Positions 1 through 50,600 of a stretch of 64,000 bases of DNA are shown in pieces (the first letter of the stretch is position 1; each line of letters begins with the position of its first letter). A program made the translations under genes and the position numbers. The stretch comes from Octopus vulgaris (Eukaryota): positions 155,930,001 through 155,994,000 of the forward strand of contig OX597814.1 of NCBI GenBank assembly GCA_951406725.2, read 5' to 3'. The notes below the pieces were generated by a model that was not told where the DNA came from, searched no databases, and saw nothing but the letters and a program-made list of their open reading frames with translations.

Positions 1-1184
1 TCAAATATATATTTGCTTCCTCAGCAACTGGGAAAATTTCACCGTATCTGAGTGAACATCCACATATCATTTTATAAACAATGAGTCCTCCCCATGCGCA
101 AAAGAGATATTTGAATAGCATAATCACGCAAACATTATACGTACACCCACTTGCATAAATGAGGATGCGTTTATACTGTAGTCACTTGAATCACCAGAAA
201 CGTTTGTCAAACCACCTTCAAATCAAATCCTTACATTTTTAAAGGAAACAATGACACGTTCATAGACAGCGCTGAAGGAAAAAATACAAAAAAAAAAAAT
301 TAAAAGAAGACAAGAATCTCATGACTAATTTCTTCGATCATACATGTCATCGATCTGAGTTGACCAGTGGCTGAACAAAAGAAAAGAAAAATGCCTAAAT
401 CCACGCCACATCCATGTTCATATTCTTTATTATACTATATGTTTTATCACTTAAGATAATTGGATTTATTACTCGTTCAGTTGTATTCATCGTTATAAAG
501 CATAATAGCTGAGGGAAAATTATATAGGTATGCATAGCGTCTGTATACAGTGTGCTATATATAGTAATTGATATAAATATTTGCGTGATGATGAATAAGA
601 ATTTATTCTAATAACCTTTAATATTGTTATAGGTCCTCAACTTGGTTTGGGAAGGTTATATGTAACCATTGGAATCAACAAAATACATATCTCATCTTTG
701 TCTTACTGAGTCTGGAAGATTAATGAAATTAATCGCCAAAAGATTTGAAATTGCGGAAAGGGACAAAATGAAATATTAAACTATCGATAGAATTTTAGTA
801 AAAAGAAATACACCAATATATCTCAGACATTGAGATAACGTTGACAAGATCCTCCTTGTTTGTTTTATACAAAGATACCAATTTTAACTTTCAACGCGTG
901 GAAGCAATAGTAAACGAGTTAGCTGAATCTGCTCTTTCATTTCGTTATGTCCTCAAAATCTAAGAGTTCTAACAGTTCAAGTTTGGCGCTGCAACTCACT
1001 ACGCTCTTTATAACTTTATAATATATTTATCCTTTGACTAATTCTCTATTGTAAAATGTCATTTCACACGTAAATAATGTCAATGAATCACTTTATGGTG
1101 TTACAATATGAACTATGACTAAAGTATATTTACCATCACGCACATACACACACTCACACACATATCTTGAATATATATCGTGCA

Positions 1185-1765: not shown

Positions 1766-3780
1766 TTAGATGTCATTTTTATATTGTAAATTCTGAAAAT
1801 TCACTTCGGGGATAAGTAAGTGTAAGTGTTCCAAGACATGGTAGTTTATGGTTGAGACCCAAATTGCAGGTAATCTTTCGATTTTCCATGAAACGAGAAA
1901 CCAAACGCAGCTGCGTTGAATGCTGTGGGCGGATCGGGGTGTCATTGCCAAGCTTGGTGTCTCAGAGGTGTTCCGCGAACCGGTCAGCCAAGAGGCGTCT
2001 CGTTTGATCGATGTACAGAGGACAGAGAGAGCAGGAGATGCAGTAAATAACATTACTTGAGGTAAAGGTAAAGGAGTCGGTGATGTGATAGGGACGGTTA
2101 TGGGTACCAGTGTGGTACTGGAGAGGTAGGAGTAGGTGCGACAGGGTGAACGGGAGCAAGGGACGGAGCCAGGCTGGGAGGCAGGTGTAGGGACGGTCAC
2201 GCAAGGTATAGGCTCGTTTGAAGGAGGGAAGGGGTAGGTTAGGGAAGATGTGCGAAGGGTGGGCCTGTAGTCGACGGAAAGCTCGCTCGGAGAACGGTGC
2301 GTTGGAGGGGTTGGGTGGAGGGGGTGATAGGTAAGAGGAAACGGGAGACGGGTAAGGGTGGGGTGACTGTGGGAAGAAAGAACAGATGCATAGTACACTA
2401 ATCGTCCCCGGTTAAGGGTAGTGTGGATAATCGCGTGGGGATATCCACGTAGGTTGAAGTGGTGAGCTATGAGTTGAGACTGAGTCTCAAAATCATAGTC
2501 GCCATTGCAGAGCCTGCGTAGGCGGAGGAATTGGGAATAGGAAATGGAGAGTTTGGTGTGGGTAGGGTGGGAGAACTTAAGGTATGAGTGTGAGTCAGTG
2601 TATTTGTACTGGGTGGAGATGGTGAGGGTGGAGTAGTATATGCTGACAGAATTGTCGAGAAATTCGATGGAAGAGTTAGAGATAGTACAGGAGATTTCGA
2701 GGGCAGAATAGAAGCACGGGTCAGCACGGGTTTCGAACTCGTTACTGGGCAGAGTGAGAGCGATGAAGCGCAGACTCTTACTGAGAAGAGAGCGCACCGC
2801 TTCAGAGAGGAGGAGAACCGGACGAATTGTAACAACAGACTGAAGTGGGAGGAGGGGGAGTTAGGTCGGGGAAGGTGAAAGTGGTGGTAGAAGTCTGAGA
2901 GGAAAGAGGAGGAAGATGTGCGTAGGAGATTTGGAGTAATGGAAGGGTGGGAGTGAAGATGAGCGGCAGTGGGTCGGAGATGGAGGGAGATGGGTAATTG
3001 TAGTGGCATCGGGTGGGACAGGATGAAAGGGTGAGTGGAGTTTGTTATTTAGTGCGAGCGATAAAGTCGTGGAAAATGTGGTTTAAGTGGAAGATAAAGT
3101 GTAAGGTGGAATGTACAATTGATGATGAGCAGTAGGAAAAGAGGTGGAATAAGCAAAAGGGATAGGCGGTCGAGGATGTGTATTTGTGAGAGATTGGAAC
3201 GAATGGTGGAACGCATAAGGCGATAGGGAGCAGTGCGAAGTATGGGTAAGATGGCTGAAGCAGAATGGAAAGTAGAGTTGAAATGGAGGCGAAAATATTT
3301 GGGGATGAGGTGGTGGTGAGGGCAGCGACCGAGAAACGTGGCTACAAAACTACAAAAGCGATTTTTTTTTTGAAAATCAGTAGGGGAAACAATATATTAG
3401 AAGGTTGAAAGCAGCGGATACGAAACGTGATAAAGTTTTTGTTTTTAAAGGTAAAGGTGGACAAGGAAGGATTCATAATTAGACATGTTGGGAAAAAGAG
3501 GAAAGAGAAAAAGTTAAAATGGTGAGAGAATGGCAAGGATATTAACGTACGGAGTTTAAAAAATCAGAAAGTTCAAATGTCGTGGTAGATTAGAGCGATT
3601 TACATCAACGAAAATAGCCAGTGAGATCCGTGGAGTCCGAAAGAGTACGAAGATCCAGTGGTAATCCGGGTGGAGTGCTGCTTATCTGGACGAGAAGAGG
3701 TACAGAAAGTTCGAGAATTAGCTAAGATTCAAGTCCAAGAGATTAAGAAGTTCAGTCAGGCAGGATTAAACTAAGGTAAC
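1766..3780 (-). mobile_element. Degenerate Penelope-like element (RT thumb, Cys linker, GIY-YIG endonuclease)
   Basis: ORF 1766..2797 has FLD..YKYTDSHSYLKFSHPTHTKLSISYSQFLRLRRLC..RGYP (PLE RT C-terminus) and PCSRSPCRT. ORF 1962..2204 has SSNVIYCISCSLCPLYIDQTRRLLADRFAEH (GIY-YIG). Frameshifted; the 5' boundary is approximate. Confidence 0.85.
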
Positions 3781-12173: not shown

Positions 12174-12321
12174 ATATAATTTAATATATGATTCAGAATA
12201 GTAATTGTAGATATTAATTTGATAAAATGTAATCTTGTATATCTCTATCATAGATAATGTCGTTCAATGTAGTTTGAGTTGCTTGAAGGTGGTTCTGTCT
12301 CTTAAACCTATATATATATAT

Positions 12322-14235
12322 AGCCTTCTACAGGTATGCCAAAGAAACAGCTATGGTGCACTGTAGGATAGGGCCACTCCTTGAAAAGGATGGCACACTC
12401 ACAGGAAATCCAATGAGGATAAGTGAAATACTAAATGAGCAATTCAAGAGTATTTTCACGCCACCCCTAGGGCATTTTCAAGTCAGCAATCCAACTGACT
12501 TCTTTACCACTGCAGATATAAAATCGGAGGCAGCGATGATTGATTACAACAATATAAAGGAAGACGATGTAATAAAGGCTATTGATGAAATGAAAACAAA
12601 CTCAGCTACTGGCCAAGATGGATTCCCAGCAATCCTTCTAAAAGTATGTAAGAGAGTCCTAGCAAGACCACTGTAGTTCCTCTTTCAGAGCTTCCTTGCA
12701 ACTGGCAAACTTCCAAGAAAACTGAAGGAAGGTAAAATATGCCCTATTCATAAAGGAGGTAGCAGAGCGGAGGCCAAGAACTACAGACCTATCTCTCTGA
12801 CCTCACACATCAGCAAGGTCATGGAACGAATAGTCAGAAGGAAACTAATCACCTTCCTTGAAGAAAATGACTTGCTGCCTGACACCCAACAGGTTTTCCG
12901 ATCAGGAAGAAGCTGCTTAACTCAGCTCCTACAACTGGGTGCTGAAACGACTGCTCAACCACTCAAATGTGGAAGTCATATATCTCGACTTTGCAAAGGC
13001 CTTTGATAAATTCCATCATGGAATGCTATGTCACAAACTGCGTGATCTTGGCATAGTTGGAAAATTGGGAGAATGGCTTCATGACTTTCTGAAGGATAGA
13101 AGTCAAGTGGTAGTAGCCAATGGGGCCGCTTCCACTAACACGCAATTAGTGAGCGGTGTTCCGCAGGGCACTGTTTTGGAACCACTACTGTTCATAATGG
13201 CCCTCTCAGACATGCCCTCAGCCACGCAGAGAGCCACGATCACAAGTTATACAGATGATACAAAAGTTTCACAGGCAATACAGAACCCTGAAGACACTAA
13301 GCACCTGCAATGTGAGCTGGACAAAATATACAAGTGGGCTGAAAAGAATAGCATGCAGTTCAATGCTGAAAAGTTTCAAGCTCTATGCTATCAGCACGCA
13401 AAACTAAATGCAATACCCAATAAATACACTGGACCTGGAGGGACTGCAATCCCAGAGGCACAATCAGTGCGAGACCTGGGTATTTACATGAGTGATGATG
13501 CAACCTTTCATGTGCATGTTGCTAAATTGGCAATGAAATGTAGGCGGCTGACCGGATGGATTCTTAGAACCTTCAGAACAAGAGACCAGGAAACCATGAT
13601 GGTCATCTGGAGGACACTTGTCCTAAGCCACTTTGACTATTTCTCTCAGCTATGGTTACCATCCAGTGTCAAGTTAATCACAGAACTTGAGGCGATCCAA
13701 CGAAGCTACACGAAGAAGATAGCCTCTGTGCAGCATATAAGCTATTGGGAAAGACTCAAGAGATTGAGACTCTATTCATTAGAGCATAGGTGAGAAAGAT
13801 ATGCCATAATATACATCTGGAAGATCCTAGAAGGACTTGTCCCAAACTTTGGCATCGAGAGTTACACAAATGCCAGAACTGGGCGCCACTGCATTGTGCC
13901 AAGGAAACCAAATTTGCCATCAAGATGTAGGACAAGATACTGTGATAGCCTGGGCTTCGGAGGCCCACAGCTCTTCAATATCCTCCCAAAGAACCTAAGA
14001 GACCTGCATGGGGTGGATGCAGATGTCTTTAAAATAAAACTGGATCTCTTCTTGTCAGGTGTCCCAGATGAACCAACTTCACGGCAGGAGGTGCAGTTGA
14101 GGGCAGTTGCATCGAACTCTCTCATGCACCAAATGGCAATTGCTAAAAAGCATTCGTGAATTAAAATCATGTAGCAACACCAAATGGCGGTGCCCCAGCA
14201 TGGCCACAGCTTGTGAGCTGAAACTAGATAAATAA

Positions 14236-14245
<10 letters not shown>
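12322..14245 (+). mobile_element. CR1-group LINE, 5'-truncated, RT pseudogene plus 3' UTR and A-rich tail
   Basis: ORF fragments 12353, 12821, 12939 and 13896 give NYRPISLTS, YLDFAKAFD, SGVPQGTVL, YTDDTK and YWERLKRLRLYSLE. The tail is atggcggtgccccagcatggccacagc..ctgaaac. Flanked by (TA)n. Confidence 0.92.
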
Positions 14246-14278
<33 letters not shown>

Positions 14279-14304
14279 TATATATATACGGTTATATATA
14301 TGTT

Positions 14305-16972
14305 TGTAGTTTTAGCTCAGATTTGTGGCCATGCTGGAGCACCACCATTTTGCTACACTGTTATCACTGTGAGCCTCCTCTAATATGTGGCACTTGGTGA
14401 AGAATGAAGTTTGATGTAGCTATCCTCATTGCCCCTCTTGCCGTGAAGTAGTTTCTTCTGGGACTCTCGCCAGCAAGATGTCCAGCCTTGATTTAAAAAC
14501 ACCTACATCTACTTTGTGCAGGTTCCTCAAGCACTTTGAGAGAATATTAAAAAGCTGTGGGCCCCTGAAACACGGGCTGTTGAAGTAACAGCTCCTGAAG
14601 CGCGATGGCATTGCTGGGATATTTGGCACTATGCAGTGTCGACCCGTTCTGGCATTGATGTAGCTTTGAACGCCAAAATGTGGCACAATTCCGTCAAGGA
14701 TCTTCCAGATGTACATTGCTGCATACCTCTCCCTCCTTCGTTCCAGGGCGTAGAGTCTTAGCTGTTTCAGCCTTTCCCAGTAGCTGAGCTGTTGCAAAGA
14801 GGCGATCTTGTTTGTGAATATTTGCTGGATTGCTTCAAGGTTCGCTGTTAATTTTACACTGTTAGGTGACCATAGCTGGGAGCAGGAATTCAGGCGGCTG
14901 AGGACGAATGTCCTCCAGAGGACCATCAGAATTTTCTTTTTTCTGGTTGTGAATGCTCTCAGAATCCATCCAGCTAGTCGCCTGCACTTTGTCGCCATCC
15001 TGGGAATGTGCATTTGCTAAGAGGTATCATCACTCATCTCGATACCTAAGTCCCTCACCGATTTAGGCTCTGGGATTGCAATTCCCTGTGGACCAGTGTA
15101 CCCTGTAAGTTTCATATTTAGCTTCGGACGCTCATAGCGTAGGGCTTGGAATTTTTCAGCATTAATCTGCATATCATTATCCTCAGCTTATCTGAGAGGG
15201 CCACTATGAAAAGCAGTGGTCCCAAAACAGTGCCCTGTGGAACACTGCTCACTATTTGTGTTTTCATAGAGGTAGCTCCATTGGCCACTACTGCCTGACT
15301 TCTATCTTTCAGAAAGTCATGTAACCACTCTCCAAGTTTTCCAGCGCTGCCGAGATTACGCAGTCTGTGCCATATCATACCATGATCCACTTTGTCAAAA
15401 GCTTTTGCAAAATCTAGGTATATTACGTCCACATTTGATTTGTTGAGTAACTGCCTCAGCACCGAGTCATAATGTTGTAAGAGCTGGGTCAGGCAGCTCC
15501 TACCTGCTGGGTATTAGTCAGCAAGTTATTTTCTTCAAGGAATGCGATTGATTTCCCTCTGACTAGCCGTTCCATGACTTTGTTGATGTGTGAAGTCACG
15601 GAGATAGTTCTATAGTTTTTGGCATCTGCTCTGCTTCCCCCTTTATGGATTGGGCATATTATTCCCTCCTTCAGCTTGCTTGGCAGTCTGCAATTTGCAA
15701 GAAAGCTGTGAAGGAGTTTTGCCAGGACACACTTACACGATTTAAGGAGGATTGCTGGGGAACCGTCATGACCAGCAGTTGAGCTTGCGCCTATCGCATC
15801 TATGGCTAGTAGTATATCTTCGCTAATGTTGATGTATTCCATTGTAACTGTCTCGCTGGTTACAGGTGAGGCGGCAAAGAAGTCGATTGGTTCGTTCATT
15901 TGTCTGTGTCAAAAAGAGGTGGTAAAAACACTTTTAAACTGGTCATTCAGTATCTCACTGATCCTGGTTGGACTATCTGCGAGGGAGCTATCCTTTTGGA
16001 CGAGAGTCCTGTATTTCAGGGTACTGAAGTTACTTCTTCCGCATAATGAAAGAAGACCTTTGGGTTTGACTTAATGTTTTTTATAACCCATGCTTCTTTG
16101 TGTGCTCTTTCCCTCACATTAGATTGTCGCAGGCTTTTTTACAATCTCCATCAGTGTTGTTTTTAGGCGGGACGTTTCGCTACGTTTGAGATATTGGTGG
16201 AGGCGATTTGCAACCTTCGTCCGTTGTCTCATGAGGATCTTCCTCTCCCTTGGAATCTTGTTCCTATTTGTGTTGGCCTTGTGCTCTGGGCCATATCTCT
16301 GGCATATGGCTTGCATACCAGTCATGAAATATTCTAGTTTCATGCCAAAGTCTGGTGTGGAGAGACGTTTCGACCAGTCCTGTCTGAGGATCTCTTTTTG
16401 GATCGATTTGCAGGCTGCTTTGAGGAAATTTAGATTGGAGAGATTTAGGGTGCTTCCTTTAAACTGTATGTCTGGCTACTTTCGGCTCAAACATAGCCAG
16501 CTCTATTATGCTTGATCTGAGACTAATGTCGGCGTCCCTTTCACATCATGAACCATATCCATATTGTTCATGAAGCAGAGATCCAAAATGTTATTTGCCC
16601 AAGTTGGTCTGAGTAAAAACGTGCTCCATAAATAGGGCATTGGTGAGGTTGAGCAGTGATTCCACCTGTGCTTGTTTAAATGAGTCGTTCCAAGAACATG
16701 AGGCCTTCTGGACATCTGACGTTGGGGAAGTTGAAATCACCCATAAGATATATGCTCACGTGGCGTTCTAGTTTCAAGAGAATTTCTTTAATTCATGTGA
16801 GGCAATCTTCAGATTGCGTATGTGGTTTTGAGCATCCGGTGGGCAATATGTATTGCATATGACTATATTGTCTTGTCGGATGTATACAGCAACTCCAATT
16901 TCCAATATGGCTCCTTTTCCTTCTGTCTGTTCGCAGTATGGCATATTTTGGTACGTGTACTTCTGCATTCTC
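14305..16972 (-). mobile_element. Second CR1-group LINE (APE endonuclease + RT relic)
   Basis: APE motifs GVAVY, NTYCPPD, MGDFNFP and NILDL; RT motifs YLDFAKAFDKVDH and VPQGTVLGPLLF. A deletion near 15190 removes the YxDD region. The 3' tail is homologous to that of the first LINE. Confidence 0.92.
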
Positions 16973-22290: not shown

Positions 22291-22340
22291 TTATTTCGGC
22301 CAGAGTTCTTTCGTCCCACTCCTGTGACCGCATCAGTGGT
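22291..22340 (-). ncRNA. HHR-like variant downstream of the Naiad-like ORF
   Basis: Minus strand CUGAUGC-GGUCA..GAGU..ACUC-UGGCC-GAAA. Stem II is clear; stems I and III are not convincing. Confidence 0.35.
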
Positions 22341-22830: not shown

Positions 22831-24245
22831 TCATATGTTGTGGTGTGTGCTATTGCTCCATTCTAGTTTTCTATTCAGGCTAGGTTTACTTTCTATTATA
22901 TGTGTAGCTTCTGTAATTTGTCTAATTGTTGCATCTGTTCTATATGTGGACAATATCTTAATCTCTATGTTATTGATTGATCCCCCGTGTTCCTGTTCGG
23001 CGTGTTGGTACAGAATCGCTGAGCTTTTACCTTCCTTGAGTTGTCTCCAATGTACATTCACCCGCTCTCCAATGCTTCTTGCTGTTTCCCCTACGTATGT
23101 TACTGTCTCGTTACTGCATCGTCCCTCTATACATCTTATACTATAGACTACATTTCTGGCTTTACAGTTTGTTTGTGGGCTAAATCTACATACAGTGCAA
23201 TAGTTATCCGTACAGAGGGTTCTACTAAAAGGATAGGTTCTACCAATTATAGATCTGATAGGGTTGCCTGGCTTTTCAACAACCTTAATTCTTAGTTTAA
23301 GTTTATCTAGGGTCCTTCTAAAGCGGTACGCCAGTTCACCTCCAGGGGTGGTGTCAACGAACATGACACTCTGGTATTTATGGCTATCATACCAAGAGTT
23401 GGCCTTCCCTATTTTCTTTTTTGTCCTTTCTATAGTGTTCCATGACTTGTTCCTATAGATTGGGCAAATCCCATTCCTATCATTACATAATATATTATCA
23501 AATTTCTTCATGGCTCCTTTGTATACTCAGATCCTTTCTTTATGGCTGTAACCTGAGAACTGCATGCGGTGAATGAAATACTGTATGTGTCTCTTTAATT
23601 CTGTAGGCTCGCACATGCGTGACACATTTCTCATTATTCTGACGAGGTCTGCCATCAAAATATTGAATTTGGCATTGCCCGCAATGGTTGAGTTCCGGTG
23701 GATCAGGTATTTTGAGGCCATAGGTTTTGCATAGTATGAATGAAGGATATGGGTTTTATTTTTCACAATTTCTAGCCAGAGTTCAGTGTCTAGTACTGGT
23801 AGTCTATGGTTGGGGTGTTTAGTGGGGTAGTCTATTGTGACCTTAATACTCTGGTGGATGGAGTTAGCTATTTGCTGGATGCTTTCCATAGTATTAGTTT
23901 CTATTACTATATCAACATTACTCTCTTGTGGGGGTGCCTTTACTACTATGTTGATATCATCAACATAGCGAGAGTACATGTTTACGAGTATGGATTTCTG
24001 CAGTAGGCATTCTTTAAGCCTTCTGTCCCACCATACCATGAAGAGGTTGGCCACATCACCAGCGATACTAACACCGATGGCTGCCCCATCGTCCTGGGCA
24101 TATATTTTATTATTAAATTTAAATGTGTGGCCTTTTAGGGTAACTCTTATACTAGCTCCTAGTGCATGTGCGATCATTTTCTTTACCTGATGGACATTTG
24201 CGGGGCTCCGTATGGCTCTGGTCCATCCGCGCCATCTACTGGTCC
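22831..24245 (-). mobile_element. Naiad-like Penelope element: RT + Cys linker + GIY-YIG, 5'-truncated, single in-frame TGA
   Basis: GAAIGVSIAGDVANLFM, RYVDD, LPVLDTELW, YYAKPMAS, FVDTTPGGELA, IKVVEKPG, CTDNYCTVC, VVYSIRC..YVGETARSIGER..H, LNRKLEW. ORFs 23527..24177 and 22831..23511 are in the same frame, separated by TGA at 23527-23529. Confidence 0.88.
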
Positions 24246-24334
24246 ATCTACTGGGGCAGAAACTACTAGTAGATGTTTAAGAGGTAGACCGCCTACAATT
24301 ACTTCTATGGCTAGGAAGACACATATAGAAAGAC

Positions 24335-37519: not shown

Positions 37520-37802
37520 TGTATTTGTCATGACTTGTATTGGTATTTTGTACTGTATTCCACTTTCACTCACAACTCCACTTCTACCAAAAATAATATA
37601 TCTCCTGACCTACATCAACCAATCATAGCCTTCATTTATCACAGTTTCATAATATTATGTTCCACCATATCACCTCAATCCTCTTCGATTTCAATTTCAT
37701 CCATAACCTTTCATTATTTCATTTCAGCAAATTGTATTTGCTTGAAAATCTATATATAAATATCCTGCAGAGTGAGTTGTTCGTCGAGGAAGCGGTGCCT
37801 AC

Positions 37803-37847
37803 CATACGTTGATAATAGGCAAACACCTTGAAACCTAGGTCCGTGTG
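37803..37847 (+). ncRNA. Type I hammerhead ribozyme motif, U3-A8 core (copy 1)
   Basis: CAUACG-UUGAUAA-uAGGcaaacaCCUu-GAAA-CCUAGG-UC-CGUGUG. Stem I extends through gaagcgg/ccgcuuc and uauccugca/ugcaggaua. Predicted cleavage after 37841. Confidence 0.82.
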
Positions 37848-38162
37848 TGGTTTCCGCTTCATCGGGGAATTATCTCCCTTTGCAGGATAGAGGACGCCGT
37901 GATGGTGTCAAGCCTATCTGGCGACGTTGATGTTCGCCTGGGGCTAAATGCAACAGTAACACCCCCACCACCCTGCCCTATCCCTAGCCATATTCAGATG
38001 GCTTTAGTCCCTTATGTTATGGAGCAGTTACTGTCTATATCTCATTTAGAGAATTATTATTGCTGTCGAACAGATTTTCGAAATCAGCAAATTGTATTTG
38101 CTTGAAAATCTATATATAAATATCCTGCAGAGTGAGTTGTTCGTCGAGGAAGCGGTGCCTAC

Positions 38163-38207
38163 CATACGTTGATAATAGGCAAACACCTTGAAACCTAGGT
38201 CCGTGTG
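38163..38207 (+). ncRNA. Type I hammerhead ribozyme motif (copy 2, identical)
   Basis: Same sequence 360 nt downstream. Predicted cleavage after 38201. Confidence 0.82.
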
Positions 38208-38649
38208 TGGTTTCCGCTTCATCGGGGAATTATCTCCCTTTGCAGGATAGAGGACGCCGTGATGGTGTCAAGCCTATCTAGCGACGTTGATGTTCGCCTG
38301 GGGCTAAATGCAACAGTAACACCCCCACCACCCTGCCCTGTCCCTAGCCATATTCAGATGGCTTTAGTCCCTTATGTTATCATATTTTGTTTTTCATTTA
38401 ATAAGTAAATTATTTAGCTTGTATTTATTTCCTAATGTCTAATAATTTATTTCCTTGTTTTTAATCTAACATCTAATTCTATTCTCTTATCTTAACAATT
38501 TCGTATCAACATGCTGTATAAAATATTACTAATTAAACATTTTTTTCGGAATTTCGTCTTATCCAGTTTCATTACATCCCACTACAAACATTTCTTGTTT
38601 TCCTAACTATAGATCTCACCCTCTTTTTTACCGGACATTAGCGCCACCC

Positions 38650-45294: not shown

Positions 45295-47719
45295 ATGGAT
45301 CACTTTTGCGTCCGTTATTTTAGAAATTTTGCCTTTATGAGGGTCATTTTTAGTCATTTCGGTTGTTTGTGGGTTTTAAGGATCTTAAGTGTGTGTAAAA
45401 TGTCCTTTAATTTGGAATCCTTATGCAACATTGGTAAATTTTAGGTGACAATGGGGAAGGTTTCTTTGTTTCTGGGGTTGTATGTGTATATGTACGACAG
45501 TATTTTCGGGGAAGGTGTGTTGCTGTGTTGAACTTTTCTTAAGGTTTCTATGTAGATATGTGTTGCAAGTCTGATTCCATCCTCTATGAGATGAACTGGA
45601 CAGTGGTTGTTAATCGGGGTGTTTTTGAGATCTTACAGTGTAAAGTCTCTGTTATTTTGTCTGACACTATTGGTCATATCCTTCTTGCAAGGTTCAAGGG
45701 GATGTTTGTTTTGGTGTCTTGGGTGGCAGGAATTAAATAGTAGATATTGTTTAGCGTCTATGGTTTTGTAAAATATCTCTGTTTCTATTTTTAGGTTTAT
45801 TTTATAATTAATATATCCAAGAATCGGAGTTCCTTGTGGTGGTATTCCGTTGTAAACTGTATCTTTGGGCTGACGCTGTTCAATAGTCTTTTGAATTTTA
45901 GGAGTTAGCCTGTGTTTTCATTCCAGAGAATGAATCAGTCATCTAGGAGTCTTTTCCAATTTTCTTTTATGTATTGGGAAAGGGGGTTTCCAAAGGTAGA
46001 TAACGATTTCTGGTAATTATTATTTCCAGATAGCCCATTGTTAGATTCTCAATGACCAGGGCGACCCTAGTGCCCATGTTATTTCCAGATTTTTGTTGAT
46101 AAAGCATATTGTCAAACATAAAATGGTTGTTTCGTAGGATGAATTCAACCGATTCAATTATGAATTCTTTGCTGATCCTTTCCGGTATTTCTTCCGGATA
46201 TTGGTTCAGCCAGAACTGAATTGCCTCTAGCCCATAATTATGAGGTATACTGGTATATAAATTAATCACATCAAATGAAACCATGATTGTTTCTTCCTTG
46301 ACTTCTTTGGAGGTGATTTAACATGTCCAAGTCATATCTAATATAGTTATTGATGTGTTTAAGAAAGGGTTTCAGGAGGATGTTCATAAATAGACTTAGT
46401 CTGTGTGCTTCACAGGCTGGGCCAGTTATAATGGGTGGTAATTGTAGGTCCGCTGGGTTTGTTGCATGTATATACGTCTTCGGTGATTTTTTATGTTTTC
46501 ATTTATAATCTGACTTTTGTTGAATTTTGGTAGACTGTAGAAAAGGTTAGGTTTGCATTTAAAGTTTGTTAAATAGTTAATTTCTTTGGTTGTTAGTTCT
46601 TTTCCATGGGTTTTAATTAGTGAGGACAAGATTTTCATTATTTTTTGCGGGGTGTGTTTAGTGATTTTTTCGTAATGTTGACTGTCATTCAGCATAGGGA
46701 TTAATAGATTTCTATAGTATAATGTGTCTATTACTACCACTGCACTTCCTTTATCTGCTTTCTTAATCGTTATATCATCTTTATTTTGAAGTTCTGTTAG
46801 TTCCTTCCATTGTGTAGTGCTAAACCTTTCCCTAATAGCCCGCTCTCTGTCAGGTTAATTTAGTATTATTTTGATCTGGAATTTGCGTGGAAGAATAATT
46901 GGTGTTGATTTCATCCATCTCTCGTAGATATCTGCTCTGTTGGAATTTTTTATCATATTCCAGAAAGCTAGTTTTCTATTATGGAAGTTTGTATTCCAGA
47001 TGTTCTCTACTTTTCTTTTTGTTAGATTGACTTGTAAGTATGACGTCCTGGTGTGTTTCATTTGATGTGCGTTGGTTGTTCTTCGGTTTGTTTGTGAAGA
47101 CCGACTTCAGTGTGGTGCATAGAGTGTTTAAATCTTTACTAATCTGTTCCTGTTTTAAACTGAATTCATTGTAAGTGTCGTGGAGAGAGAGTTGTTCATT
47201 GTTGGGTTTGTTAATAAACATTGAGTTGAGAGTTGTGCATAAAAGTTGTAAGCCATTACTAACCTGATCTGTGAGATGAGTTGTTTCTTCAATGTTTTTC
47301 CTCTCCCGGGCGAGTAGGTTTGAGTTCTCGATTTTGTTATTTATGATAATGAGGTGCGATTTAATATTTTTGAGTTCTTTAAGTATGTCCTAGTTTGTAA
47401 TTTTATCTGATGTATTGGTCTTCTGTGGCATTTTCGGTTCCACGTGTTTTAGCTTATGGTTGAGGGAGTTGGTATGTGAAAGAACGTCGTTGAATGTACA
47501 ATAGACAAAAATTAGGTGAAAAAAATTAAAAAAGACGTGTTATATGGTTAAAGAATATATTTAAATTGTTATGCTAGAAAAATGTTATAAAATTTTGTGT
47601 ATAGTAACATTGTTTTTGGAGAAATAACCATCATATTTTCTTCTCAAATTTCTCAAATTTCTTTGCCAATACTGTGTCATCTCTTTGCTAGATATCACAG
47701 TACGAGAGTTCCAGACAGG
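45295..47719 (-). mobile_element. Degenerate Penelope-like element (N-terminus and RT)
   Basis: IKKADKGSAVVV (~46740), FYSLPKFNK, VSFDVINLYTSIPH, NNHFMFDNMLYQQKSGNNMGT, IFYKTIDAKQYL and TNIPLNLARR. Multiple stops and frameshifts. Confidence 0.88.
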
Positions 47720-48297
47720 GGAAGGTAATCGCTCAGGCGAAGATGCACTCTGCACCGACAGCAGATTGCATTCCTAGAATACAGAATGATACCCTTTAGT
47801 GAACACATTCAGAAATGCGCAAAGCAACTGCTACCACAATTTGTAATCTTTACATTATATCAATGTGCCATTGGAACGCCAACACAAGTTAAATTAAATA
47901 AGGAAACCTATTTCATTGGAAAATATAAGCCAAAACTTGACCATTTCTAGCATTTTTAAATAAGGAAACTTACCTCACAGTATAAAAATATAAAGCAAAA
48001 CCTAGCATTCAATTCTTTCTAAATCAAAACATGTTAAATTAATAAAAGCTAATCATTCCCAACATTTTTGATTATCTCTTTTATACCGAAAATATCCCTG
48101 ATTATCTTATCCTGTCTGGAACTCTCATACTTCATAGCAAAAAGATGACGCAATATCGGTAAAGAAATTTGAGAAATTTGCAAAGAAAATACGAAACCGA
48201 AATTTCTCCAAAAACAATTTTACTATACACAAAATTTTATAACATTTTTCTAACATAACGATTTAAATATATTCTTTAAAACCATATAACACGTCTT
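47532..48297. repeat. Diverged ~187-bp inverted repeat at the PLE 5' end (47532-47719 / 48111-48297)
   Basis: The arms align as reverse complements (aagacgtgttatatgg..ccagacagg / cctgtctgg..ccatataacacgtctt). Confidence 0.8.
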
Positions 48298-48701: not shown

Positions 48702-49540
48702 CAGGGTGCGTAAGTTGTTTGAAGACATATTTATGTTTATAAAAAATACAGATATACAATAACAGATAACATTATATATTTAAAAAATGCTGTGAGGATA
48801 AAAGTAAACCTTCTTTTCTATAATTTTATTCAATAAAGCTACTTTCAGCATCCGCTTCTATATGAGATCTAAATCATCAATATGCTTGAATCAAGTTGTC
48901 TCGGTTCATTTTGGACATTACTTTCACTATGACAGCTTTCAAAGAATCTTTGGTGCTATGGGCGTGTTTATTGAGCTCTCTCTGAACAACGCTCCACATG
49001 TAATAGTCCAATTGAATGATATCTGGGGAATTAGGAGGCCGAATTTTAGGGGCTATGTAATCGTGAAAATTTTCAGCCATCCATTCCTCTGTTAATAGAG
49101 GCATGTGTGATAGTGCAGAGTCTTACTGAAACACATATATCCTTCCATTACATACACTGTCTATCCAGGGCTTTACAAGTGTTTCAAGTACCTCAATGTA
49201 GGTGAAAAAGTTGACTCGATAGCCTTGTGGAAAGAAGTAAGGAGGCATCATATGTCCTTCATTGCTGACAAACCCTAAAACCATGACAGTTGCAGGAAAT
49301 TTTGTATGCATAACGCTTGGAACTTCAGAAAGGTCTGCACATAACCATCTGTCATTTCTTCTGTTAAATATTTGACCTTGGTCGAAGTTTTTTTCGTTTG
49401 GAAAAAAACAAATCAAATCTTCCTCTGCAAGATTTTTCAGATTTTTTAAGTACCTTTTAGATCTGTTGTAGTAATTTTACTTTTGCTTTTTCGGACAAAT
49501 TGACTTTTCCTCATCATATCAGACTTACATCTGATGTCTT
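48702..49540 (-). mobile_element. Tc1/mariner DD37D (maT-like) transposase relic with one terminal repeat end
   Basis: The in-frame ORFs give VFQ*DSALSH...PPNSPDIIQLDY, with 37 residues between the second and third Asp. TA-CAGGGTG terminus at 48700-48708. Confidence 0.85.
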
Positions 49541-49594: not shown

Positions 49595-49856
49595 ATATTT
49601 ATACTTTTTAATTACGGAGAAGTACTTGCATAGCAATTGATTTGATCTGAGATCGTGTGCTGAAACGAAAACAAATGCAGCGTGGAAGGTGTTTGTAAGC
49701 CATTTAAGAAACACACAAAAGCCGTTCGATTCACTTCAACATTTAAGTTTAATTTGTCAAAATATTTTCGTCGCTTTAAGACCGCGACCTGTTCACTGAC
49801 AAAAATCCGAGTTTTGTCAGTGAACAGGTCGCGGTCTTAAAGCGACGAAAATATTT
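49595..49856 (-). mobile_element. Short HHR-bearing element ending in a perfect ~45-bp-arm hairpin (49760-49856)
   Basis: aaatattttcgtcgc..ctgacaaaa / atccgag / ttttgtcag..gcgacgaaaatattt. The left boundary is approximate. Confidence 0.75.
49753..49803 (-). ncRNA. Type I hammerhead motif with swapped G3-C8 core
   Basis: UUUGUCA-GUGAACA-g-GUCGCggucuuaaaGCGAC-GAAA-AUAU-UU-UGACAAA: 7-bp stem I, 5-bp stem II, palindromic stem III. Confidence 0.75.
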
Positions 49857-50600
49857 ATGCCGATGTTTATTAATATCTATATACGCATTTTAAGTCGAAT
49901 TTATGACTGTATAGTATGTTTAAAATGTTGATTGCCTAATTTGAGTTTACATGTTAATCCTTATCTTTTGTCTCGTGTTAAACCCGAGTACTTCTTAGGC
50001 AGCTCTATATATTTCGTAAGAAAGAGCAATAATATTATATATCTATGTGTGTGTGTGTATACATGTATGTATATAGTGTAACTGTGCGTGTATTTGTGTC
50101 TATTATTGTGAATAGTTTAACAGTTTTCACACAAGTATATTTACGATACAAGAAACATTTGAAAACTTGATAAAAATAAACAAAGCATTTTCATTTTTTT
50201 CATCAAAATACGATACGGGTTTCAAACGCCTAAAAGGACAATTTAGTTATGAATATATATAATAGGAAAAATAAGTTGAAATAAATTATTTTTTTCATTT
50301 GAGTTCTGAGGATCACATGTTTTTTCTATTCAAGAATGACATGGTATTCGTATGTCGTTTCCTTCTCACTGTAGCTGGTTCGTGGACACACTCCCACTGC
50401 TACCTCCACTACCTCAGATGAAACGAAACACCAACATCATATGATTTTGTAAGAAAAACATGTGATCTTCCAGAACTGATATAATGGAAGTTTACATTAA
50501 TTTAGGTTTTTTCATTTTATATATTCTCTTACATCTCTTTGACTAAATCTTCCTTTTAAGCGATTCAAACCCGTTACATATCTCAATACATTCTTTTTTG

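Follow-up and report, generated by a model that had tools for sequence, protein, structure and literature searches.

The inverted repeat and its hammerhead motif

The window, that is, the whole stretch of 64,000 nucleotides of Octopus vulgaris DNA that was analysed, comes from a 2.8-Gb genome rich in AT and microsatellites and contains an inverted repeat of 48 bp whose arms are 98% complementary. Positions are numbered here from the predicted ribozyme cut, 0 being U17 and +1 the first base past the cut; those upstream are counted on the reference copy L084, which has an 8-nt loop II, and lie one further out in the focal subfamily with its 9-nt loop. The following features make up the locus:

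49601..49612, no strand: left flank, the expected place of a 10-14 bp target-site duplication (TSD), unrepeated at the right junction
49613..49809, minus strand: main arm, a short pseudo-LTR (pLTR) copy of a Penelope-like element that begins about 49 nt ahead of the predicted cut and reaches the long 'tail' end (+147)
49613..49670, minus strand: tail, 58 nt long, lying between two preferred 3' ends (+89 and +147)
49701..49703, minus strand: likely ORF start codon, +57 from the predicted cut, inferred from the ATG of copy L250
49753..49803, minus strand: predicted minimal type-I hammerhead with a G3-C8 core pair and U17
49803-49797, minus strand: stem I, 5' strand
49796-49790, minus strand: core G3-U4-G5-A6-A7-C8-A9
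49789, minus strand: extra G before stem II
49788-49784 / 49774-49770, minus strand: stem II, 5 bp with a 9-nt loop
49769-49767, minus strand: G12-A13-A14
49766, minus strand: A15.1, with a palindromic 4-nt insert between it and U16.1
49761 and 49760, minus strand: U16.1 and U17
between 49760 and 49759, minus strand: predicted cut
49759-49753, minus strand: stem I, 3' strand, 7 bp perfect
49810..49856, plus strand: inverted partner arm, ending at U17, its first positions differing in allele from the main arm
49857..49964, no strand: right flank, part of it apparently another lower-copy repeat (a weak assignment from contigs only)

All of the type-I hammerhead core is present, namely U4, G5, A6 and A9, the G12-A13-A14 run, the A15.1-U16.1 pair and H17. 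The canonical hammerhead 3-8 pair is C3-G8; at this locus a Watson-Crick pair is formed as G3-C8, and the canonical identity is absent. An earlier note on this DNA had described a swapped G3-C8 hammerhead with core GUGAACA, an extra G before stem II and a perfect 7-bp stem I. Each of these elements was recovered on the minus strand, and the swap itself is upheld, for a predicted ribozyme, by family-wide fixation and by compensatory changes relative to a sister family. RNAfold forms both stems I and II in the 53-mer (-13.9 kcal/mol, z -2.57), an energy matched by 5 of 200 shuffles, while the fold of the whole 201-nt arm gains nothing over shuffles (z 0.24). When both arms stand in one RNA, the predicted structure is a hairpin of -77.7 kcal/mol with the ribozyme buried. 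At the gathering score, Rfam gave no match to its hammerhead model or to any other in the 64-kb window.

As had been reported, the match of the plus arm extends through U17 (49856) and is lost at 49857. The inverted partner and the main arm differ in allele at reference position -44, where G is carried by 9 of 89 family copies. Many differing public contigs land on 49873-49964 of the right flank. No TSD was detected at the locus, the longest word shared across the two junctions being the 8 letters of 49595-49602 and 49851-49858; because the 10-14 bp TSD usual for the family is absent, the focal arm was likely clipped, deleted or remodelled after insertion. Contigs from four public runs contain the family in organisms A-D, and none of those listed provided an empty-site or bridging piece for the locus. 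Just to the left of the insertion, window 49123-49476 (minus strand) holds a decayed transposase frame that we take, from its motifs, to be Tc1/mariner-like; Pfam gave no match.

Two explanations of the junction can be weighed at this point. It is extremely improbable that the palindrome arose by inverted duplication at the DNA level, or that it is a MITE flanked by a target duplication of 8 bp. An 8-mer complementary to itself, at 49760-49767 and 49849-49856, does resemble a direct repeat, but it is internal element sequence and the main arm continues for 147 nt. Moreover, the family is linked to an RT ORF and its paired arms can differ by subfamily, by which this reading is refuted. Microhomology-guided internal initiation, in which the AU-rich stem III RNA would match an AT-rich target and the junction would be remodelled later, is unlikely, although it would account for the match between the last 6 letters of the arm plus 2 flank letters and the target at 49595-49602, the place at which a duplication of 12-18 bp should start. 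The preference of the family for (TA)n and the gathering of early ends at AT-rich +18..+21 (5 of 113 copies) also speak for it. Nevertheless, an 8-letter match is weak in AT-rich DNA, and the remainder of the duplication is missing.

A Penelope-like family with a G3-C8 core

Copies were counted genome-wide by exact patterns. The 42-mer occurs 479 times, the downstream 31-mer 3,020 times and the 14-letter core motif 9,439 times, against 19 for the reversed control, so that the core motif is non-random; family size is about 10,000 copies. The upstream anchor is present in 406 longer copies, from which an ORF was reached that encodes DKSG (a DKG-like motif), YVDD, a CX3CXXC linker and a GIY-YIG domain. 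The C-terminal GIY-YIG scores above the Pfam cut-off, and Pfam RVT_1 gave no score on the RT of this family; the RT call consists of motifs and 53-54% protein identity with a sister family, whose fragment in the window gives a sub-cut-off RVT_1 match. In 19 of the 20 best ORF loci, with one partial, the G3-C8 motif follows the RT/GIY-YIG ORF at a distance of about 1 kb, on the same strand. A full-length copy, L250, has the structure pLTR-ORF-pLTR, a partial tandem with a unit of about 4.26 kb, and its ATG at +57 begins a reading frame that runs without a break into the N-terminus of the RT ORF, which would place the ribozyme in the 5' UTR of the element, upstream of the start codon. To judge from the repeat family, the ORF link and the structure of L250, we identify the focal stretch as the pseudo-LTR belonging to a Penelope-like element, and the palindrome as its known inverted 5' copy. 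The family has the single RT + GIY-YIG ORF, flanking pLTRs, inverted copy with a tail and TSDs that define EN+ Penelope-like elements, and the CX3CXXC preceding its GIY-YIG agrees with the CX2-5CxxC linker Zn-finger of the Neptune clade.

Several further insertions deserve mention in their own right. At L029/L030 (G000:C2:17.907-17.913 Mb) a tandem array of ~166-bp units carries a G3-C8 hammerhead in each unit and could provide the dimer needed for cleavage. One inverted insertion with identical flanks recurs in ~30 of roughly 90 sampled 3'-anchored places (L051, L064-L068, L076 and others on C1), and has been captured and multiplied by another repeat. The minus arm of L129 has A-to-G changes clustered in the GAAA core and stem III (8 A>G relative to the reference, the maximum among 264 copies), changes that look like A-to-I RNA editing before reverse transcription. 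Additional Penelope-like and LINE RT fragments, labelled by motifs, occur in the window at 1766-3400, 45967-47389, 47548-48279 and 12287-16475, with a long inverted repeat adjoining one of the Penelope-like fragments.

Of 93 copies not selected by the exact core, 90 retain G3 and 86 retain C8. The sister family carries C3-G8 in a homologous motif at the equivalent place behind its ORF, and one compensatory pair separates the two families in each of stems I and II. Over 50 cells, 98% are paired, and three pairs, including 3-8, are changed on both sides, each change being one event between two related families. The G3-C8 pair is thus, on this alignment, fixed in the family and covarying with the C3-G8 of its sister. 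It is possible, if rather doubtful, that the hammerhead is a dead relic, a G3-C8, U17 motif that no longer cuts and spreads as a passenger of the pLTR. This would agree with copies that keep the motif intact yet leave no footprint at 3' or 5' ends, and with the absence of covariation of hammerhead pairs inside the family. It would also accord with passages reporting that metazoan hammerheads of Penelope-like elements (PLEs) cut poorly in vitro (PMC4209133), and that the double mutant of PAc, the Poseidon element of Anolis carolinensis (Frangieh et al. 2024, PMC11167929), rescues activity only in part. On the other hand, the three compensatory changes argue against decay, as do the retention of the motif in the youngest ORF-bearing copies and the restriction of subfamily changes to loop II, outside the core.

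The sister hammerhead is found in the window at 22298-22339 (minus strand) and at L267-L273, has a non-palindromic stem III insert besides its C3-G8 pair, and has the normally invariant A9 replaced by C in 14/14 matches; a fragment of the sister ORF occupies window 22831-24276. Other hammerhead families appeared in a descriptor scan of 0.92 Mb of collected loci (9 matches with U3-A8 and 13 with C3-G8; none in shuffled sequence). In addition, window 37724-38380 (plus strand) contains two tandem ~360-bp units with U3-A8 hammerhead-like cores at 37809 and 38169, a palindromic stem III and an apparently imperfect stem II, resembling a retrozyme-like dimer.

Ends and starts of the copies

The 3' ends were examined in 114 unique core-bearing copies, chosen without regard to their 3' part. 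Two preferred sites account for 94 of them, 39 ending at +79..99 and 55 at +139..147, and 59 of 74 inverted pairs combine one short end with one tail end. Elsewhere, ends are sparse: 3 at +100..138, 12 at +5..78 and 4 at -29..-5, these last making up 16 copies scattered upstream of +79, while the single end at -4..+4 is the focal arm itself. The background estimated from 113 copies is 0.14% per position per copy, or 0.11% if two internal rearrangements and two near-normal ends are left out. Across the focal subfamily genome-wide (at least 479 copies), 17 differ at +1, in 16 of which the difference is a point change and the sequence continues; 29 differ by +4, and 27 of these continue, the others being L224, which stops at 0/+1, and L222, which stops at +3 into a microsatellite. 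Thus, in counts that rest on exact patterns, 2 of at least 479 copies end at 0/+1, the focal arm included, against 1.0-1.4 expected from background.

Broader searches gave a similar range of ends. With a wider pattern (100 of 155 matches listed), ends at +7 and +10 were seen among 15 loci fetched. In C1 and the first 26 Mb of C2, covering all subfamilies (an estimated 730-850 copies), the 100 of 1,145 matches listed contained the focal copy and L281 as 0/+1 ends, and other ends at +8, +12, +13, +14 and +19. L280, a lone 14-mer without the element, was removed from the count of near-site arms. With ~9,400 copies, 10-13 are expected to stop at any given nucleotide, so that a scan will encounter such an end by chance, and the end point of the focal arm is within chance.

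TSDs of 8-19 bp, mostly 10-14, bound 31 of the 59 units that lie outside (TA)n and, among inverted pairs, 21 of 32, a share that is somewhat high as the filter also removed units with a short AT run as best match. In four TSD-bounded pairs the short arm ends early (+19, +29, +52 and +73), which implies that any position can serve as the start of the second arm. The near-site arms outside (TA)n, namely the focal locus, L224 and L222, have no TSD (0/3), which points to later deletion or remodelling.

These observations bear on the proposal of the earlier note that the right arm was copied as cDNA from the upstream product of self-cleavage and is a genomic footprint of activity in vivo. The cDNA part stands as likely, the arm being an inverted pLTR copy; its derivation from a cleavage product is not supported, since ends are unenriched at the predicted site, an outcome that the note itself had given as refuting, and no TSD marks the end as primary. 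The wider claim of a footprint finds no support, ends at the cut being no commoner in the family than elsewhere; the note had itself allowed that a single case could be chance. Some facts do favour reverse transcription of the inverted arm from the 3' end of the upstream product, with rare arms as cleavage footprints: the focal arm stops exactly at U17, L224 and L281 share its layout, and a cleaved RNA could in principle serve, since arms can derive from a second RNA. All three near-site ends outside the focal locus, L224 and L281 (0/+1) and L222 (+3), are inverted partners of a tail arm. If true, Penelope hammerhead cleavage in vivo would for the first time be documented in a genome. Against it stand the lack of any excess at 0/+1 and the absence of TSDs in near-site arms when most pairs have them, together with the passages on PAc, in which no RNA reads end at the cut and cleavage is unneeded (PMC11167929). 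We therefore hold it to be improbable; true cleavage footprints would amount to at most about 0.4% of copies. The reading that we favour, and consider very probable, is that the locus represents a head-to-head pLTR insertion of a Penelope-like family with a G3-C8 minimal hammerhead, the arm stop likely reflecting chance truncation or later deletion and not the copying of a cleavage product.

The 5' ends were taken from 57 unique copies picked by a 3' anchor. Starts lie between -62 and -41 or at -71/-72 in 33 of them, 3 reach the upstream end of the reference, and 21 are internal, scattered from -36 to +46. The commonest start is -58 (24 of 264 unique copies), and 23 of these 24 have a preceding G where the element has C or T; further upstream they share no sequence. 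LINE RTs copy the cap G, and the extra G is likely a reverse-transcribed cap at the RNA start, a signature that would map where the RNA begins. No report of cap-G copying in PLEs was found in a literature search. A spliced exon was rejected as the source of the extra G: the letter before it varies at random (A 9, C 6, T 6, G 2) and the copies have no longer exon in common, though a branch point and an acceptor are suggested by the sequence upstream.

Of the 21 internal starts, 6 lie within -4..+3 (post hoc p = 0.012, small sample). Sorting by eye the 5' ends near the cut (100 of 154 matches listed) and at a control site 20 nt away (100 of 129 listed) gave ~59 true junctions at each; among the matches listed, positions 0 and +1 had 13 and 11, and the best positions of the control 14 and 10. 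Any bump at the cut is therefore at most about twofold and within the control range, with denominators estimated from local samples, and it is confounded by the stem I complementarity between arms. Copies of the downstream cleavage product were accordingly rejected as the source of these ends, positions 0/+1 being no higher than the best of the control. Most copies retain the whole ribozyme and begin ~58 nt upstream, with an extra G, and the templates were therefore likely for the most part uncleaved RNA. It is improbable that the natural, family-wide G3-C8 hammerhead in the 5' UTR of this Neptune-like element cuts slowly in vivo and that, with two separate RNAs used for each inverted insertion, the focal arm, L224 and L281 were copied from a ~59-nt capped upstream product; L281, which runs from a G-marked start to 0/+1 inside (TA)n, has the exact shape of such a product.

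Possible use of two templates per insertion, and comparison with known systems

The loop-II subfamilies are separated by an indel and several changes, and in 6 of 25 inverted pairs covering loop II (L002, L003, L026, L046, L057 and L221) the arms belong to different subfamilies; 20 of the 25 scored pairs came from patterns holding one loop type. Divergence within pairs is 4.1%, compared to 5.1% in random pairs, which says little alone. Since paired arms belong to different subfamilies, in L002, L026 and L057 inside a single TSD, two RNA molecules would seem to have served per inverted insertion; gene conversion is a possible source of discordant arms.

The most plausible sequence of events would be the following. 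A capped RNA would start ~58 nt upstream of the cut and carry the ribozyme in its 5' UTR. The protein of the element would nick both target strands 10-14 bp apart and initiate reverse transcription within two RNA molecules, at +89 and +147 in the beginning of the ORF. Each cDNA would extend to the capped 5' end, and the two would be joined head-to-head. The ribozyme itself is expected to cut slowly and to depend on a dimer or on protein, and templates would thus remain mostly uncleaved; cleavage, if any, would decap the mRNA instead of setting the ends of inserted copies.

This family bears in part on the role of hammerheads in Penelope-like elements. With ~10,000 insertions that keep an intact ribozyme and no end peak at the cut, cleavage products would make up no more than a percent or two of the templates, in agreement with the in vitro result on PAc. 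Sequence evidence for two RNA molecules per inverted pLTR also makes a dimer model testable.

Minimal type-I hammerheads are known in the pLTRs of Penelope-like elements (Cervera & De la Pena 2014, PMC4209133), where, according to passages of that work, they cut poorly and as dimers. Like the motif described here, they have an extra nucleotide between 9 and 10.1, a G10.1-C11.1 pair and a short palindromic stem III, U17 is common in the alignment, and they occur mostly as solo copies with some close opposite-strand pairs. In contrast to the G3-C8 and 7-bp stem I of this family, the descriptors given there are C3-G8 and one U3-A8 variant; no cephalopod occurs in the part of the supplement text that was searched.

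The PAc element offers the closest mechanistic parallel in the passages of PMC11167929: an engineered C3G/G8C double change partly restores cleavage, which needs protein, and uncleaved RNA is the main template, with internal initiation and a tail. In both systems two internal 3' ends inside the ORF start define the tail, targets are AT-rich, both strands are primed on uncleaved RNA, and the protein is a predicted dimer, with which the two-template reading would fit. They differ in that the likely start codon of the octopus element comes after the ribozyme, the tail measures ~58 nt, the swap occurs in nature and is not engineered, and the protein has a CX3CXXC linker, Neptune/Nematis-like. Indeed, the passages on Neptune-type EN+ PLEs (Craig et al. 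2021, PMC8557442), in which inverted copies and a tail are known, describe a C-terminal GIY-YIG with two Cys between GIY and YIG, a CX2-5CxxC linker, a DKG-like motif, inverted 5'-truncated copies and a (TA)n bias, all shared by this family; its short copies, unlike those, have clustered and not random 5' ends, and the likeness is one of motifs.

Natural 3-8 covariation has a precedent in the U3-A8 core variants of Perreault et al. (2011, PMC3088659), whose section on core variation gives U3-A8 and not G3-C8. Non-LTR retrozymes, as presented in passages of bioRxiv 10.64898/2026.07.22.740005, are non-autonomous, pLTR-derived hammerhead repeats comparable to the 166-bp tandem array of L029, whereas the focal copy is an inverted pair and not tandem.

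Cores with G3-C8 are missed by Rfam and by CUGANGA descriptors, so that hammerhead families of this kind are under-counted. To our knowledge, the G3-C8 core has been known only as an engineered rescue. A natural one was not found in the searched literature, including passages of PMC3884650, PMC6765202, PMC6155905, PMC6962438 and bioRxiv 10.64898/2026.07.22.740005, and the largest such survey, that of Lunse et al. (2017), may list one. Compared with these systems, in which PLE hammerheads, inverted pLTRs and tails are already known, the part that appears to be new is the natural, family-wide G3-C8 core.
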